Source: a virus (taxonomy: Duplodnaviria > Caudoviricetes). From it: DNA of 61,423 nucleotides. Position numbers and translations under genes: made by a program. The stretch spans positions 1-61,423 of IMG/VR virus record IMGVR_UViG_3300043410_001140. One strand, written 5' to 3'. The notes under the pieces were generated by a model, which worked only from the letters and a program-made list of their open reading frames with translations, was not told where the DNA came from and did not search any database. Positions 3,264-55,095 of this stretch are shown here, in pieces (position 1 is the stretch's first letter; every line of letters begins with the position of its first letter).

Positions 3264-5387
3264 ATGCAACTTGGCTTGAACATTACCAATTCAACCGCTC
3301 CCGGTACTACTACCACGGGCGGCATGGTTACTATTAAGTCTCTCAAGGCTTTGCAGGATGAGCAGCGCGCGGCGGCGCAACTGCAGAACTCACAACCAGT
3401 CGTTCAAGCTTTAGCTGGCTACATCCGTAAAACTTGGATGAGCTCAATGCTGGCCAAGCAGCAGACGTCTGAAATCAAAATGCTCAAGTCCGTGCGCGCG
3501 CGTCGCGGCGAATACGATCCCGATAAGCTCGCTCAGCTTCGGGAGCAAGGCAGTTCCACCATCTACATGATGTTGACTTCGAACAAATGCCGTGCTGCAT
3601 CGAGCTGGTTGCGCGACACGCTGGTTACGTCTTCGGATGAAAAACCTTGGACGATCAAACCCGGGGCGATTCCTGACCTGCCCCCCAACGAAGTTGAAAG
3701 CATTTTGCAGCAAGCCCAGCAAGAAGTGGCTCAGCTGTATGCCAGCGGACAGCCGCCTACGGATCAGCAAGTTCGGGAACGCTTGCTTGAGATGAAAGAC
3801 ATTGCGATGTCCCACATGAAGGACGTTGCCCAGCGCACAGCCGAGCGCATGGAAGTCAAAATGACTGACCAGTTGCAAGAAGGCGGGTTCCAAAAGGCGT
3901 TCAGCGATTTCCTTGACGACATCACGACGTTCCCAGCGGCGTTTATCAAAGGCCCGGTTGTCCGCAAACGCCCCAAAATGAAATGGGTTCCCGGCAGCAA
4001 CGGGGACTACAAACTGCAAGTTGAAGACACATTGAGCTTGGAATGGGAGCGTGTTGACCCGTTCAACATTTACCCAGCAGCCGATGCGTCAGACGTTGAC
4101 GATGGCTCATTGATTGAGCGCCACAAACTGCACCGCGCTGATTTGCAAGCGTTGATTGGTGTTGAAGGCTACAGCGACGGCGCCATCCGCATGGTGCTTG
4201 AAGAATATGGTAAGGGCGGTCTGCGCGACTGGATTTACGTTGACATGAACAAAGCCGCTGCTGAAGGCAAATCGACTATGGGTGTGCAACAAAACCCGTC
4301 GGCATTGATTGATGCACTTCAGTTCTGGGGCAACGTGCAAGGCCAGCTTTTGCGCGACTGGGGCATGACCGAAGACGAAGTTCCCGATCCATTGATTGAC
4401 TACCCCATCGAGGCTTGGGTTATCGGTTCTTGGGTCATCAAGGCAGTGATCAACCCTGATCCACTGGGGCGTAAACCTTACTACAAGGCCAGCTATGAAG
4501 AAGTACCGGGAGCGTATTGGGGTAATTCTGTTGCTGATTTGTGTCGCGATGCGCAAGATATCTGTAACGCTGCGGCACGTGCATTGGTGAACAACATGTC
4601 GATTGCGTCCGGCCCGCAGGTCGTGTACAACATCGACAGACTGCCACAAGGCGAAAACATCACTCAGATGTACCCATGGAAGGTATGGCAAGTTACGTCT
4701 GACCCAATGGCGGGCAGCGCTGCCCCCATGCAGTTTTTCCAACCCAGCTCGTTGTCACAAGAGCTCATGGCTGTGTACGAGAAGTTTTCTGTGCTGGCTG
4801 ACGAATATACGGGTATTCCCCGATATATGACTGGCGATTCTGGCGCGGGCGGCGCGGGTCGCACGGCTTCGGGTATGAGCATGCTCATGTCTAACGCTGG
4901 CAAAGCCATCAAACAAGTGATTGCGTCGATTGACGAAAACGTGTTGCGCTTGGCCATCGAACGGTTGTACTACTACAACATGCAGTATGGCGATGATCCT
5001 GACCTCAAAGGCGATGTGAACATCGTCGCGCGCGGCGCGATGTCGCTGATGATCAAGGAACAAGCCCAGATGCGCCAGAACCAGTTCTTGCAGATTGCGC
5101 TGTCTAACCCGATCACGCAGCAGATCGTAGGCGTCGAAGGCATTGCAGAAATCCTGCGCCAAGCCGCCAAAACGCTTGACCTCAACCCAGACAACATTGT
5201 CCCGCCCGTTGAAATCATCAAGCAGCGCATGGCTCAGCAACAGCAAGCCGCCATGGCGCAACAGCAGCAACTGGCCGCAATGCAGCAAAATGGTGGCACG
5301 CCGCCAAACGCGAAACCCGGTGCGACGTTGCAAAATGGAGCCCCTGTTACCAACAATTTTGCGCCACTTCCCGGCGTAGGCTCTTGA
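3264..5387 (+). CDS. Portal (head-tail connector) protein
   Basis: 707 aa directly after TerL; ERVDPFNIYP and RTASGMSML motifs; Gln-rich C-terminal tail. Confidence 0.88.
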   Translation: MQLGLNITNSTAPGTTTTGGMVTIKSLKALQDEQRAAAQLQNSQPVVQALAGYIRKTWMSSMLAKQQTSEIKMLKSVRARRGEYDPDKLAQLREQGSSTIYMMLTSNKCRAASSWLRDTLVTSSDEKPWTIKPGAIPDLPPNEVESILQQAQQEVAQLYASGQPPTDQQVRERLLEMKDIAMSHMKDVAQRTAERMEVKMTDQLQEGGFQKAFSDFLDDITTFPAAFIKGPVVRKRPKMKWVPGSNGDYKLQVEDTLSLEWERVDPFNIYPAADASDVDDGSLIERHKLHRADLQALIGVEGYSDGAIRMVLEEYGKGGLRDWIYVDMNKAAAEGKSTMGVQQNPSALIDALQFWGNVQGQLLRDWGMTEDEVPDPLIDYPIEAWVIGSWVIKAVINPDPLGRKPYYKASYEEVPGAYWGNSVADLCRDAQDICNAAARALVNNMSIASGPQVVYNIDRLPQGENITQMYPWKVWQVTSDPMAGSAAPMQFFQPSSLSQELMAVYEKFSVLADEYTGIPRYMTGDSGAGGAGRTASGMSMLMSNAGKAIKQVIASIDENVLRLAIERLYYYNMQYGDDPDLKGDVNIVARGAMSLMIKEQAQMRQNQFLQIALSNPITQQIVGVEGIAEILRQAAKTLDLNPDNIVPPVEIIKQRMAQQQQAAMAQQQQLAAMQQNGGTPPNAKPGATLQNGAPVTNNFAPLPGVGS

Positions 5388-49603: not shown

Positions 49604-49842
49604 GCTTTCTCCAATATGTAGAACGACCACAGCCACGCTTTGGCGTCATCTTCGTTGGTGAAGTATCGAAGTCCTCGCCCGCTGAGTAACTCAGCGTAGT
49701 AAGTCCTTAGCCCATCGGGGTCTTGTAAAACTACTTCGCCTACGATTGTCCTGCCCAATGCATAGCTTGTGTCGCATAGATACCATTGAGCGAAGCCAGC
49801 CCTGTCACGGCCGCCCTCACCTGTACGCCGCCATTGCATCAT
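49594..49842 (-). CDS. Small protein, family B (W...F....AK.W)
   Basis: Pattern shared with 52684, 54611 and 56666. Confidence 0.7.
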   Translation of the reverse strand: MMQWRRTGEGGRDRAGFAQWYLCDTSYALGRTIVGEVVLQDPDGLRTYYAELLSGRGLRYFTNEDDAKAWLWSFYILEKACR

Positions 49843-50942
49843 GCGTCTAGCTCGAAATGGATGTTTTCACCATGGGGCGCTTGGACGTCGGAGGAGATAC
49901 ACCACACGACGGGATATCCGGGATCACTTCCAAAATCTGTGTAACCATCCGTAAGGCAAACAAATACCTCCGGAGCAATACCATGTTCAGCACAGTACTC
50001 AAAGCCAGCAGGCATATCAGTACCACCACCCGAGTAGAACTCCAGTTGAACTTCTTCACCACAATCGAATTCGACATGTTTTTGAACCTCGGTGTCTGTG
50101 TAGAGAACGTGAACTTTGTCAGGACGACATTGCTCGATGATTCGTGATAGGTGACCGTTGTATGCGTTCAACTCTTGGCGTGAGATAGAACCGGACACAT
50201 CGACTTGAACAACAAGCTCACCCATCTGTGGCAACTTGTCTGTGGATGGTAAGTAGTCTTCGAAGCGGCGGTTGCGGCGGCGCCATGTTTGACCTTGAGC
50301 CACGCATGCAGTCATGTGCTTTTCAAGAATGTCGTACCAAGGTGTCTTGACTTCGAGAATGTCAGCCACGATTTTTTCCAACATGCCAGACATCTTGCCG
50401 CGCATCTTGGCGGCTTGGGCAGCTTCGGCGATCTCGACTTTGATCTGACCTTCGATCTCGCGGATTTCGTCTGGGGTCAATGCTTTGCCGTTTGCGCTAC
50501 CATCACCGTAGATGATGTCGTGACCTGTACCACCAGAACCATCGGGGTTGTCGGGCAACTCGTCGTAGATTGTTTCAGTGGTCTTGTCTTTGCTGCCAGC
50601 GATGTTCACTGTGTTGGGAATGCGATCACCAACTCGGCTGTCGTCAAGCGTGTCATTGATCCAAGCGTCACCTGCGTAGTTCCACTTCTTCTTGTCGCGG
50701 TTACCGCAACGCAAAGCATGCTGGCCGATCACATGGCCAACCTCATGGCACAGACCCCAAACGATCTGGGGCACAGTCAAGCCCTCCAAGAACTTCTCGT
50801 TGTAGTAGATGTTGGCACGAGCATCGACTGCCAGTGTTGGCACTTGATCTGTTTTGATGAGCTTGCGGCGCAAAAGAATTGCGGCAAAGAAAGGGTGGTC
50901 CAAAACAATTTGTGCTTTGGCTTTTTCAAGTTTTGTTGCCAT
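49839..50942 (-). CDS. VWA-like plus putative metallopeptidase (DUF2201-type)
   Basis: HEVGH zincin motif, WNYA.D..IN, MIDAS DVSGS, GGGT, LTDG. Confidence 0.88.
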   Translation of the reverse strand: MATKLEKAKAQIVLDHPFFAAILLRRKLIKTDQVPTLAVDARANIYYNEKFLEGLTVPQIVWGLCHEVGHVIGQHALRCGNRDKKKWNYAGDAWINDTLDDSRVGDRIPNTVNIAGSKDKTTETIYDELPDNPDGSGGTGHDIIYGDGSANGKALTPDEIREIEGQIKVEIAEAAQAAKMRGKMSGMLEKIVADILEVKTPWYDILEKHMTACVAQGQTWRRRNRRFEDYLPSTDKLPQMGELVVQVDVSGSISRQELNAYNGHLSRIIEQCRPDKVHVLYTDTEVQKHVEFDCGEEVQLEFYSGGGTDMPAGFEYCAEHGIAPEVFVCLTDGYTDFGSDPGYPVVWCISSDVQAPHGENIHFELDA

Positions 50943-52683: not shown

Positions 52684-52914
52684 TCAGTTTCCTTTCTCCA
52701 TTCTTGCTTGAGTAAATATCCACGCCTTGGCTTCGTCCAAGTCGGTGAACTGCATACGATCAGCAGATTCATGCATCATCCACGCTGTGTAGACGTTGCC
52801 AACCCCTGACTTCATGATGAAGCCTAGGGGGGTAGTACCATTGGTTTCGTAAAGAACCCAATCACACAGAGTGCCCTTCTTCCATTCAACCCAATTAGGA
52901 GAGGACGTTGGCAT
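52684..52914 (-). CDS. Small protein, family B
   Basis: FTDLDEAKAWI...RME. Confidence 0.65.
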   Translation of the reverse strand: MPTSSPNWVEWKKGTLCDWVLYETNGTTPLGFIMKSGVGNVYTAWMMHESADRMQFTDLDEAKAWIFTQARMEKGN

Positions 52915-53899
52915 TTTTCACAGCCCACTGGACAAATGCTTTGGTGTTGACGATCTCAGGCTTGAGCTTCTTGGAGTCCAAAACACACATGACTTGGAAC
53001 TCAGCTGGCATGCGGCCAATGTATTCGCACACACGGTCAAAGTTATCCTTGCTGACACGGTGAGCAATAGCACCAGTCAACGCAAACAACACTGGCATGT
53101 CGTCAGGCACAGCAGCTTTGGCAGGATTCATCAAGATGCCGTCAATGTCAGGCAGCGATTCAAAGATGCGCTTGAAGCCTGTGTACTCAGCCGCCGCACC
53201 CTCGCCCACACAGCCAGCGATGTTGGAGTAGTACAGATCAGTGGACAAGCTGGTATCGACTTCGTTTGCCATAGCCCATGAACGTGGCGTTGGGTTGATT
53301 GTGCGGTTGGGATCGAAGTCAGACAGCATGTTGGGTCGGAAGCGCAAGAACTGCACCATTTCCACAGCGATGTTGTTGTCCAAAGCCCAATCGCACCAGT
53401 CGTCCAAGTTCTCGTCGAACATCAACGTCTGCATACGGTTGCCCAGCTTGGTGCTCATGCGAGTCGCGCCAGACTTGTCTTCGGTACGGTTACCTGTTGC
53501 AATGATGTGCAGCTTGGGATGCAACTTGAGCTCACCCGCGTATCGGTCGAGGATCACACGACACAACGGATTCTGCATGGGGATAGCAGCGTCAGACAGT
53601 TCTTCGAGAATCAATGCACAGGGCTGATCCGAACCATCGTCACGGATGCGGTAGAACTCGGATGGGGGAATCCAGCGTGAGCAATCACCGTCAGTCTTTG
53701 GCAAGCCCATGATGTCCACAGGATCGCGCAATGATGGATTGAATTCTGTGATGCGTTCTGGGGAAATGCCAAGTGACGCAACAATCTCACGAGCCAATGT
53801 TGACTTGCCGCCGCCGGGCTTGCCAATGATGTTGGGCACAAGTTGATTACCCTTGGCGAAGTTAGCGAGAACAGAAGTTTTGATGTCAGAGTATTTCAT
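52895..53899 (-). CDS. MoxR-like AAA+ ATPase
   Basis: Walker A GKPGGGKS, Walker B LILEEL, ATGNR, NR finger, PTPRSW. Confidence 0.9.
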   Translation of the reverse strand: MKYSDIKTSVLANFAKGNQLVPNIIGKPGGGKSTLAREIVASLGISPERITEFNPSLRDPVDIMGLPKTDGDCSRWIPPSEFYRIRDDGSDQPCALILEELSDAAIPMQNPLCRVILDRYAGELKLHPKLHIIATGNRTEDKSGATRMSTKLGNRMQTLMFDENLDDWCDWALDNNIAVEMVQFLRFRPNMLSDFDPNRTINPTPRSWAMANEVDTSLSTDLYYSNIAGCVGEGAAAEYTGFKRIFESLPDIDGILMNPAKAAVPDDMPVLFALTGAIAHRVSKDNFDRVCEYIGRMPAEFQVMCVLDSKKLKPEIVNTKAFVQWAVKNANVLS

Positions 53900-53936
53900 G
53901 GTTTCTTTCAATGAGTGAATGGTTGAGTTGAAGTGA

Positions 53937-54137
53937 GGGGATGGTTAATTCTTCATATGCCCCTCGCATATGTTTAAGGTCGTGCTACTCAGCTTACAAT
54001 CCTATGGGGGAACCGAGTAGCCACAGCGTACAGTCACATTAACCAAGCTAGTACGCCGTGAATGATTTCATCCCCCAAATTCGTGATAGGTGAATTTACC
54101 AAAAGAGTAGGGCTACAAAGAGCAGGAGAAACCCTAC
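53937..54137 (-). ncRNA. Candidate multi-stem pseudoknotted RNA in the AAA ATPase leader
   Basis: Five complementary segment pairs of 6-9 bp; G-U pairs favour the minus strand. Confidence 0.55.
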
Positions 54138-54168
54138 ACACCAGATGATTTTGAATTCAGTCAAGTCT

Positions 54169-54402
54169 TCAGTCGGCGGCATCGAGTACCTTTCTTAGAT
54201 ATGCTGCGACTGATTCGTCGTCAGTGTTGATGAAAACGAATTGGGATTCGCCGTTATCGTCTGTGCAAGCAAGGACTTCGTAACATTCACGTCCGTCTAT
54301 TTGTGGATCGAACATGAACTCGCACCCTCTACAGTTTCGTATTACCTTGACCTTGTAGAAGATTCCGTCACGCCACACACCAGTGAGGTCAACGGGTATC
54401 AT
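54169..54402 (-). CDS. 4-Cys mini-protein, family A member 13
   Basis: CRGCEF...C...C...FVF...ESVAAYLRKVLD. Confidence 0.78.
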   Translation of the reverse strand: MIPVDLTGVWRDGIFYKVKVIRNCRGCEFMFDPQIDGRECYEVLACTDDNGESQFVFINTDDESVAAYLRKVLDAAD

Positions 54403-54614
54403 GCCATGCGCTCATGTGCAAGTGTTCTGATTTGTGGCTCGGGGTAATCCAGCATAGCTTGCACTTGTACTAGAAAAGCATTTGGTCGTTTGTATGCGTT
54501 ATCCCTGTAATAGCCCATCAAGAATTCAAGTGCATCAGCGTGGTCAGAATTCAGCCACTTTAAGACTTGGCCTGCGTCGCTCACTATCAAGTACTGCCCA
54601 TTTTTCGCTCTCAT
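54399..54614 (-). CDS. Hypothetical protein
   Basis: Coupled; ends LAHERMA. Confidence 0.7.
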   Translation of the reverse strand: MRAKNGQYLIVSDAGQVLKWLNSDHADALEFLMGYYRDNAYKRPNAFLVQVQAMLDYPEPQIRTLAHERMA

Positions 54615-54862
54615 GCTTCCTCCAATCGTTTGTTCACAAAGTACGCGATGATGTGTTCTTTAGCTTCTTTGCATGTCTTGAAGCATCCGTGATACGGTGG
54701 CTCAACGCCTCTGTCTTCTGCTTCATTAGCGAACACTCTGAATTCACCCTTGCGCGTGTCATGTCTGACATACGCCAAGAGATTGTTGTCTCTGTCGAGG
54801 TAGTCCCAGAACTCATAGTAGAGTTTGCGCCGTGAGTTACGGCCATGTTTCTTCCACTTCAT
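54611..54862 (-). CDS. Small protein, family B
   Basis: MKWKK...FKTCKEAK...KRLEEA. Confidence 0.72.
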   Translation of the reverse strand: MKWKKHGRNSRRKLYYEFWDYLDRDNNLLAYVRHDTRKGEFRVFANEAEDRGVEPPYHGCFKTCKEAKEHIIAYFVNKRLEEA

Positions 54863-55095
54863 TCTTCTAACATTGAGGAAACTTCCAACGCCACCTCAAG
54901 CTCATCAACGATAGTCCACATGGACGCCATGCGTGTGTCACCCAACATGTAGTAGTGACGTTCGAATTCTTGTGGCGTTTTGAATGGCAAGCCATGAATG
55001 TTTGTGTACACGCCGGTATCGTCACTCATGCTGAATTGCATGCTTGGTTGTGCTTCATCGCGGTCAAACGTCAAACAGTAATTCCACATCATCAT
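54859..55095 (-). CDS. Hypothetical protein
   Basis: AGGAG SD before MMMWNY. Confidence 0.65.
   Translation of the reverse strand: MMMWNYCLTFDRDEAQPSMQFSMSDDTGVYTNIHGLPFKTPQEFERHYYMLGDTRMASMWTIVDELEVALEVSSMLEE

Follow-up and report, generated by a model that had tools for sequence, protein, structure and literature searches.

Locus and neighbouring genes

The window, i.e. the whole stretch of DNA analysed here, is a complete virus record of 61,423 bases; the genes of its right part, from about 33.6 kb onwards, lie on the minus strand. In the order of transcription, this block begins with many small early proteins and continues with a MoxR-like AAA+ ATPase and a DUF2201 metallopeptidase/VWA-like protein; a DNA polymerase, a helicase and a primase/helicase come after these two. 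No RNA polymerase was found among the ten large ORFs of the window that were examined. The sequencing runs listed as containing the window are DNA runs labelled freshwater or aquatic, two of which may come from the source sample, and no RNA run was among them; a blastn search of positions 53000-55000 against a phage collection gave no match. As a side observation, the MoxR-like ATPase occurs here in the same phage as the DUF2201 protein, and the PHROGs label of the latter ('HNH endonuclease') is unsupported by its Pfam domains.

The element described below lies upstream of the ATPase gene (Table 1), in a space between ORFs of at least 40 aa that extends from 53900 to 54168. An earlier reading made from the sequence alone had taken this space for a non-coding gap of about 260 nt. 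Its non-coding character was borne out, and no reading frame is conserved across the element; its length was overestimated. Since a 28-aa ORF at the upstream side is conserved as a peptide, the true non-coding gap measures about 196 nt (53900-54095). This small ORF, which overlaps the end of a 77-aa ORF by 14 nt, reads MPPTEDLTEFKIIWC followed by a hydrophobic tail; its version in relatives (..KPTDDLTEFQIIWC.. and a hydrophobic tail) is found directly 5' of the RNA element. Judged by this composition, the product is probably a small membrane protein of a kind that gene callers would miss. In the window, its stop codon is located 19 nt before S1, the first strand of the element.

Table 1 Features at the locus and parts of the RNA element (positions in the window; all on the minus strand)
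Feature	Position	Strand	Description
DUF2201 metallopeptidase/VWA-like protein	49839-50942	-	
MoxR-like AAA+ ATPase	52895-53899	-	Gene downstream of the element; phrog_1297 'ATPase', E 1e-67
ATPase start codon	53897-53899	-	ATG, read in the sequence
Spacer	53900-53934	-	From the element to the ATPase ATG; C/A-rich and G-poor; unpaired with the element in every fold
Whole RNA element	53935-54076	-	142 nt, read 54076 to 53935; boundaries are the outermost covarying helices
S1 (PK1 5' strand)	54072-54076	-	GGGGG; pairs with CCCCC in loop B
Linker	54071-54062	-	10 nt
Hairpin A	54021-54061	-	11-bp stem (54051-54061 with 54021-54031); 19-nt near-invariant loop (54032-54050)
PK2 5' strand	54038-54045	-	Eight bases in loop A, UGGUUAAU; pairs with 53942-53949
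Hairpin B	53985-54020	-	Stem 54013-54020 with 53985-53992; 46 distinct helices
PK1 3' strand	54006-54010	-	5' part of loop B; pairs with S1
Junction	53984-53973	-	12 nt
Hairpin C	53954-53972	-	6-bp stem, loop CGAGGGG; 29 distinct strand pairs
PK3 5' strand	53960-53965	-	GAGGGG in loop C; pairs with 53935-53940
PK2 3' strand	53942-53949	-	AUUAACCA, first part of the 3' tail; pairs with 54038-54045
PK3 3' strand	53935-53940	-	CCCCUC, second part of the 3' tail; pairs with GAGGGG of loop C
Upstream 28-aa ORF	54096-54182	-	Outside the RNA element, occupying part of the gap; peptide conserved in relatives

A short motif, CACCTATCA(C/T)GA, was observed in five copies in the window (46124, 50144, 54083, 56892 and 58788), all on the minus strand and hence in the sense of the genes. 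For comparison, 2.6 copies are expected on both strands, and 12 of 100 shuffles reach five. Two copies overlap start codons just after stops and one is situated 7 nt upstream of S1; the motif also precedes the element in relatives. A role as promoter or translation signal is conceivable.

Architecture of the element

The fold consists of three successive hairpins (A, B and C) that are tied together by three pseudoknots (PK1, PK2 and PK3). From the 5' end, the strands follow one another in the order S1, A5', PK2-5', A3', B5', S1', B3', C5', PK3-5', C3', PK2-3', PK3-3'. A covariance model of the family, R1, which was built on 30 sequences, has its sole match in the window at 53933-54083 (98.7 bits, E 1e-26).

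The sequence-only reading had proposed a pseudoknotted multi-stem RNA with a closing stem and one pseudoknot, and all the sequence pieces that it quoted are present at their plus-strand positions. The general proposal stands and the inner helices were recovered. The hairpin CATATGC/GCATATG (53954-53972) is hairpin C, the stem of AGCGTAC (54025-54031) with GTACGCC (54051-54057) is hairpin A, and the pseudoknot of ATTAACC (54038-54044) with GGTTAAT (53943-53949) is PK2, which joins loop A to the 3' tail; all three covary. The stem of GCTACTCAG (53984-53992) with CCGAGTAGC (54013-54021) corresponds to hairpin B, which likewise covaries, with many complementary variants in relatives.

The closing stem of GGGGAT (53937-53942) with ATCCCC (54070-54075), in contrast, had to be given up, as relatives put its two strands into two other pseudoknots. 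In 19 of 30 relatives the 5' flank finds no partner in the 3' tail (energies weaker than -8 kcal/mol). Only the other 11 sequences would allow S1 to pair with the tail, as against 30 of 30 for the pairing of loop C with the tail. The real partner of the 5' strand is loop B, with at least seven different complementary sequence pairs. Apart from the closing stem in those 11 sequences, no conserved alternative pairing was found. With three pseudoknots in place of one, the revised architecture also leaves out two distal hairpins of the original proposal. The one at about 54077-54097, an inverted repeat rich in A and U that surrounds the motif CACCTATCAC, does not occur in relatives, and that at 54107-54137 is located inside the conserved 28-aa ORF, with a nucleotide sequence that relatives do not keep. 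A terminator scan gave a weak site in the latter (54137-54122, minus strand), with two sites against 1.5 expected in the region, and the sequence of relatives differs here too.

Folding of the single minus-strand sequence reproduced the hairpins proposed earlier with a z-score of -2.39, and 4 of 200 shuffles were as good; the plus strand gave a z-score of -1.95. Taken alone, such evidence is suggestive and not decisive, and the case for an RNA rests on comparative data.

Occurrence of the family

A search with the ATPase protein led to 32 related phage loci. Upstream of the ATPase, the ten closest relatives have the element, and paired changes are obvious among them; the others carry a different sequence there. 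R1 detected it in 10 of the 32 loci and reached no more than 11.8 bits (E 0.21) in any of the remaining 22. A 21-nt pattern derived from loop A was found in 55 viral contigs, of which 38 carry true copies by inspection and 17 chance matches in coding regions, and a stricter pattern was found in 62 metagenome contigs. When these were pooled, 94 instances could be parsed, with 66 distinct cores. R1 gave 74 matches in 74 representative sources, one in each, and 73 of them scored at least 74.7 bits.

The remaining match (L149:1793-1949, minus strand, 21.8 bits) was not counted as a member; it has a perfect loop A motif and poor complementarity in PK2 and PK3, and is a doubtful case that may be a decayed copy or a chance match. 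Two copies that seemed to lie on one metagenome contig (L120 and L126) proved to be one place seen twice, through an overlap of the contig ends.

Members are about 140-160 nt long and their carriers, all of them virus or metagenome contigs, are uncultured freshwater phages. Two pattern scans of prokaryotes, covering one genome for each of 185,579 species, revealed no member; the first gave no match and the second five chance matches, none with the loop A motif. Judging from these scans, the element appears to be confined to phages.

In the distant ATPase relatives without the RNA (L011-L020, L023-L028 and L031), short tandem repeats and small hairpins were observed within the 100-200 nt that precede the ATPase start, examples being GGTCCAAC repeated three or four times and ACGCAGTACC repeated four times. 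This region may be regulatory or origin-like.

Covariation of the helices

Column counts were made for stems A and C, PK2 and PK3 together, on a model-guided alignment of 73 distinct sequences; hairpin B and PK1 were left out because their positions shift between groups. It was found that 94.4% of 1813 cells are paired, compared with 77.7% in shuffles (0 of 500 reach the observed value), and that the proportion drops to 37-49% when the partners are slid by one to three columns. Double-sided changes were counted in 317 cells, against 103 expected, and 15 of the 25 pairs show them. An independent MAFFT alignment gave the same covariation figures. This alignment had been fitted to stems A and C and not to PK2 or PK3, and the latter two were still 96-97% paired. 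The column pairs with the highest mutual information are predicted pairs, those of PK2 among them. RNAalifold, applied to the MAFFT alignment, recovered nothing beyond the base of stem A and PK3, a consequence of the misaligned hairpin B.

The individual helices were compared among 65 distinct full-length sequences. Stem A occurs as 41 distinct strand pairs, all of them complementary, with double-sided changes in five of the six pairs counted. Stem C, whose variants are counted in Table 1, has 95.9% of its cells paired and four of five pairs changing on both sides. For PK2, 13 distinct strand pairs were seen, with 96.1% of the cells paired and double-sided changes in four of eight pairs. PK3 occurs as six strand pairs, which include GGAGGG:CCCUCC, GGGGGG:CCCCCC, GAAGGG:CCCUUC and GGUGGG:CCCACC, and 97.0% of its cells are paired.

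Hairpin B was assessed by the energies of cognate and non-cognate strand combinations; its 46 distinct helices, seen in the same 65 sequences, give a cognate mean of -14.3 kcal/mol against -7.8 kcal/mol for non-cognate strands. PK1 was assessed by reading complementary runs, as mononucleotide shuffles and cross-matrices of the long flanks were too noisy. Its variants are GGGGG(G):C(C)CCCC, GGAGGG:CCCUCC and UCUGCC:GGCAGA, and further CCCGUAGUGG:CCACUACGGG, UAGCCAAGU:ACUUGGCUA, CUAGGGCA:UGCCCUAG and GCAGGGGGU:GCCCCCUGC. In one clade (G6, see below) and in locus L063, PK1 is short, A/U-rich or unclear.

The covariation also identifies the functional strand. The claim that mismatches turn into G-U pairs only on the minus strand was upheld: when read in this sense, stems A and C contain 130 G-U pairs and three A-C single mismatches, and the sense fold is the more stable one in 50 of 65 sequences. 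This asymmetry speaks against an element that acts at the level of DNA, such as a replication origin, a single-strand DNA signal or a protein-binding site, as does the lack of a turning point of the GC skew near 54 kb. Moreover, we know of no duplex DNA site with three covarying pseudoknots and invariant loops. The single copy per locus within a replication module would suit a DNA signal, and so would the tandem repeats at the same position in distant ATPase relatives; on balance, we regard such a signal as exceedingly unlikely. It is almost certain that the minus strand from 54076 to 53935 encodes a genuine RNA, conserved and pseudoknotted, that represents a new family, and the search for covariation in homologues, which the sequence-only reading had put forward as a check, came out strongly in its favour.

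Conserved unpaired bases

About 20 unpaired bases are near-invariant. They comprise UAGC and G(U/C)(G/A)ACU in loop A, (G)AC in loop C and GA before the tail; loop A as a whole reads C-UAGC-N-[PK2 strand]-GUGACU-G. As the first search pattern had itself imposed the loop A sequence, two further patterns were used to check the invariance. The pattern with a free 5' half of loop A retrieved 26 loci, all previously known. That with a free 3' half retrieved 31, of which five were new, and these differ from the first pattern at one position of loop A, reading GCGACU or GUAACU. The ten copies that had been reached through the ATPase protein, without any pattern, also fit the loop A sequence.

Genomic context

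The element is always oriented in the sense of the neighbouring genes and is positioned in the early or replication gene block. The flanking genes differ between six groups of carriers. In G1, the group of the window, the element is situated between the small membrane peptide and the ATPase. A DUF3310 protein lies upstream in both G2 and G5, and is followed after the element by a weak Hjc-like nuclease in G2 and by a family A DNA polymerase in G5. In G3, the upstream ORF ends in an acidic ..DDIPF tail, a motif which we take to resemble the tail of SSB, and the downstream gene encodes a 112-aa protein of no known kind; in G4, a small Cys-rich ORF precedes the element and a small basic protein follows it. 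In G6, the element comes after the last gene of an operon, whose stop codon is 43-117 nt away, and is followed by a convergent 560-aa gene, either directly or after a terminator hairpin; such a hairpin 3' of the element was found in members L052 and L085.

The packing is tight in most loci. Of 69 loci with enough flank, 55 have an upstream stop codon that ends 16-33 nt before loop A, which puts it within S1 or 0-3 nt away; in G4 the stop codon UAG of the upstream ORF lies inside S1. The next start on the same strand is mostly found 8-41 nt 3' of the element (66 loci with enough flank), and the downstream genes of G3 and G4 have Shine-Dalgarno sequences of their own. Replication-module proteins elsewhere in the locus are common to several groups. 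Within the fetched flanks, which are short, no protein family is common to all groups, the widest being present in four of six. Judging by their genes, the carriers are mosaic phages related to one another, with the RNA placed at different junctions.

Two observations were made beside this survey. In locus L093, an extra 190-aa ORF with CxxC motifs and no Pfam match (4536-5108, minus strand) lies 110 nt after the element and may be an inserted gene. In the G6 clade (L052, L085, L087, L114, L128, L144 and L147), about 17-23 copies of the palindrome GTTTAAAC (searched as TTTAAAC) were counted per 11-15 kb, in genic and intergenic positions and far above chance; with some 20 copies per locus, the copy beside the element was ruled out as a specific promoter.

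The position in the window had suggested a link to the ATPase gene, and a riboswitch or protein-binding leader that controls this gene would fit an element which ends 35 nt upstream of the ATPase start, keeps this place in ten close ATPase relatives and has a complex conserved pocket resembling an aptamer. The link did not survive the comparison of loci. The element is lacking in 22 of 32 ATPase relatives, it elsewhere precedes a DNA polymerase, a nuclease-like gene and small genes of no known kind, and in G6 there is no downstream gene at all. Furthermore, neither a terminator nor an anti-terminator, a helix sequestering the Shine-Dalgarno sequence or a conserved alternative fold was found 3' of or within the element, the spacer and the ribosome site being unpaired in the folds. 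A leader of the ATPase gene is hence very unlikely. A classical riboswitch is likewise unlikely, in view of the absence of a terminator-like site after the element, the unpaired spacer and ribosome site and the lack of a coherent set of downstream genes. Given the different junctions and the operon-end position in G6, the element is to be seen as an autonomous RNA module and not as a leader tuned to the ATPase gene.

The close fit between stop codon, element and next start raises the possibility of translational coupling or re-initiation, in which a ribosome that terminates upstream melts PK1 and the fold hands it over to the next start. From the known footprint of the ribosome, a terminating ribosome would have to open PK1 wherever the stop codon abuts S1 or lies within it. 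Flush packing is, however, to be expected anyway in compact phage genomes. Moreover, in G6 there is no downstream ORF and the stop codon is remote, in G3 and G4 the downstream genes possess their own Shine-Dalgarno sequences, and in the window itself the upstream ORF ends well before S1. Coupling of this kind is considered highly improbable.

Proposed function

An autonomous fold that acts on its own RNA, or is released from it, fits every context. We tentatively propose that the element is a knot which serves as a processing or decay boundary of the transcript, and hold this as a real possibility rather than as a probability. The module would act in cis, on the polycistronic transcript of which it forms part. 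With both ends buried in pseudoknots, it would form a compact knot that RNA-tracking enzymes pass with difficulty, be it the 5'-end-dependent RNase E or RNase J arriving from upstream, 3' exonucleases arriving from downstream or possibly Rho. It would thereby mark a boundary of processing or decay, give the neighbouring cistrons stable ends and uncouple their fates, whereas the unstructured C/A-rich spacer and the ribosome-binding site of the next gene would stay free. This proposal is based on the buried ends, the static-looking fold, the position between cistrons or at the end of an operon and the free ribosome site of the next gene.

Several points weigh against a decay boundary. Known bacterial and phage mRNAs make do with simple hairpins as barriers to exonucleases, and the many invariant unpaired bases point to something more specific, for instance catalysis, a ligand or a partner. 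A barrier on the 5' side would protect nothing useful in the G6 clade, so that only a role at the 3' end fits there, and the weakness of PK1 in this clade and in L063 is also at odds with the proposal.

Catalysis would mean a self-cleaving ribozyme of a new class, whose cut in the polycistronic transcript falls at the element or within it. The compact pseudoknotted core with its near-invariant unpaired bases, the lack of a consistent gene association, the single copy per locus and the absence of an expression platform would all suit this explanation. Small ribozymes typically show features of this kind, and they are common among phages; one report on small ribozymes in phages is PMC10879173. 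On the other side, four diverse members gave no match to an Rfam ribozyme even at E values of up to 10, and no conserved base precedes S1. The HDV-like fold is a nested double pseudoknot with the strand order P1-P2-P3-P3'-P1'-P4-P2'. An HDV-like ribozyme was rejected, as the order of the helix strands in the element differs, the partner of S1 being enclosed by hairpin B instead of following a closed P3 hairpin, and as no Rfam HDV model matched. A cut at the 5' edge, of the HDV, hatchet or glmS type, is disfavoured because the UAG stop codon of G4 lies inside S1 and messages without a stop codon would result. We consider a self-cleaving ribozyme unlikely.

A partner, on the other hand, would suit a trans-acting non-coding RNA that is cut from the early transcript and serves as a decoy or partner of a conserved factor of the host or the phage, or assembles with itself through the strands assigned here to pseudoknots. 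For such an RNA any genomic context would do, including the end of the operon in G6 with its terminator hairpin, and a single copy per locus among small early genes would be sufficient; the invariant loops would lend themselves to recognition by a conserved partner. As regards self-assembly, covariation would look alike for pairing within a molecule and between identical molecules. Against this explanation, an own promoter or terminator was not seen in five of six groups, the next ribosome site follows within 8-41 nt, and no protein family shared by all groups was found in the short flanks that were fetched. A trans-acting RNA is thus judged to be improbable.

If the element does act as a decay boundary, a knot that works without protein would be a novelty in bacteria and could serve as an insulator part. 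The element may, in addition, reveal how the fate of long early transcripts is shaped in lytic phages without an RNA polymerase of their own. RNAs with several covarying pseudoknots and some twenty invariant unpaired bases are rare, and those found earlier have mostly proved to be ribozymes, riboswitches or precise machines of another kind. The element is abundant, with 73 distinct sequences from lake viromes and metagenomes, and moves between junctions as a module; at 142 nt, it is a well-defined and experimentally tractable candidate for a new RNA function. A bolder claim is that it represents the first member of a new functional class, either a new ribozyme or a phage counterpart of the exonuclease-resistant xrRNAs, which has spread as a mobile module among freshwater phages. 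Such a counterpart would be a protein-free topological knot that stops RNase J, RNase E and Rho. We regard this claim as possible, though on the unlikely side.

Comparison with known RNA families and systems

The statement that the element fits no known riboswitch, ribozyme or tmRNA was corroborated. The 4227 models of Rfam 15 gave no match in the whole window at the gathering threshold; with E values of up to 10, three weak and unrelated matches of at most 15.2 bits, against cut-offs of 35-60 bits, were obtained for positions 53700-54400, and three other family members gave only other unrelated weak matches. ARAGORN detected no tRNA or tmRNA gene in the window or in 10 related loci.

The RNase III processing hairpins between the early genes of T7-like phages are presumed to define and stabilise mRNA ends. 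Like the element, they are intercistronic in an early phage operon; they are, however, simple and irregular and occur several times per genome, whereas the element is a single-copy pseudoknotted domain with invariant loops. The glmS ribozyme comprises about 150 nt with several pseudoknots and resides in a 5' untranslated region that has neither a terminator nor a Shine-Dalgarno switch. In these respects, and in the strand at the 5' edge that is locked into the core, the element resembles it. The two differ in helix order and conserved bases, the Rfam glmS model is not matched, and the element lacks a link to one gene.

Literature searches brought up no description of such a phage RNA. The closest survey, that of Fremin and Bhatt in 2023, reported 10,006 candidate structured RNAs of viruses from IMG/VR contigs, among them covarying intergenic motifs, some of which are within 25 nt upstream of genes (PMC10690425). 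The element was compared with the motifs named in the main text of that paper, which are other ones, situated upstream of GP20, GP32, terminase and others; no function is assigned to the candidates there (PMC10690425). The element is accordingly regarded as a new RNA class with a well-supported structure and a putative function.

The nearest analogy is provided by the xrRNAs of flaviviruses, which are described as directional roadblocks (PMC5760640, PMC12081666). In both, the 5'-terminal strand is held by a pseudoknot (here PK1, whose pairing in G6 and L063 is weak or hard to make out), the loop of a hairpin pairs with bases located 3' of the fold (here in PK2 and PK3), and untranslated RNA adopts a compact, protein-free fold with many invariant bases. 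The xrRNAs measure about 70 nt and are built on a three-way junction; in the element, three hairpins in series and three pseudoknots take up about 145 nt. Neither the sequences nor the Rfam models show a match between them, and the hosts of the element are bacteria with different RNases. The resemblance is to be taken as an analogy only.
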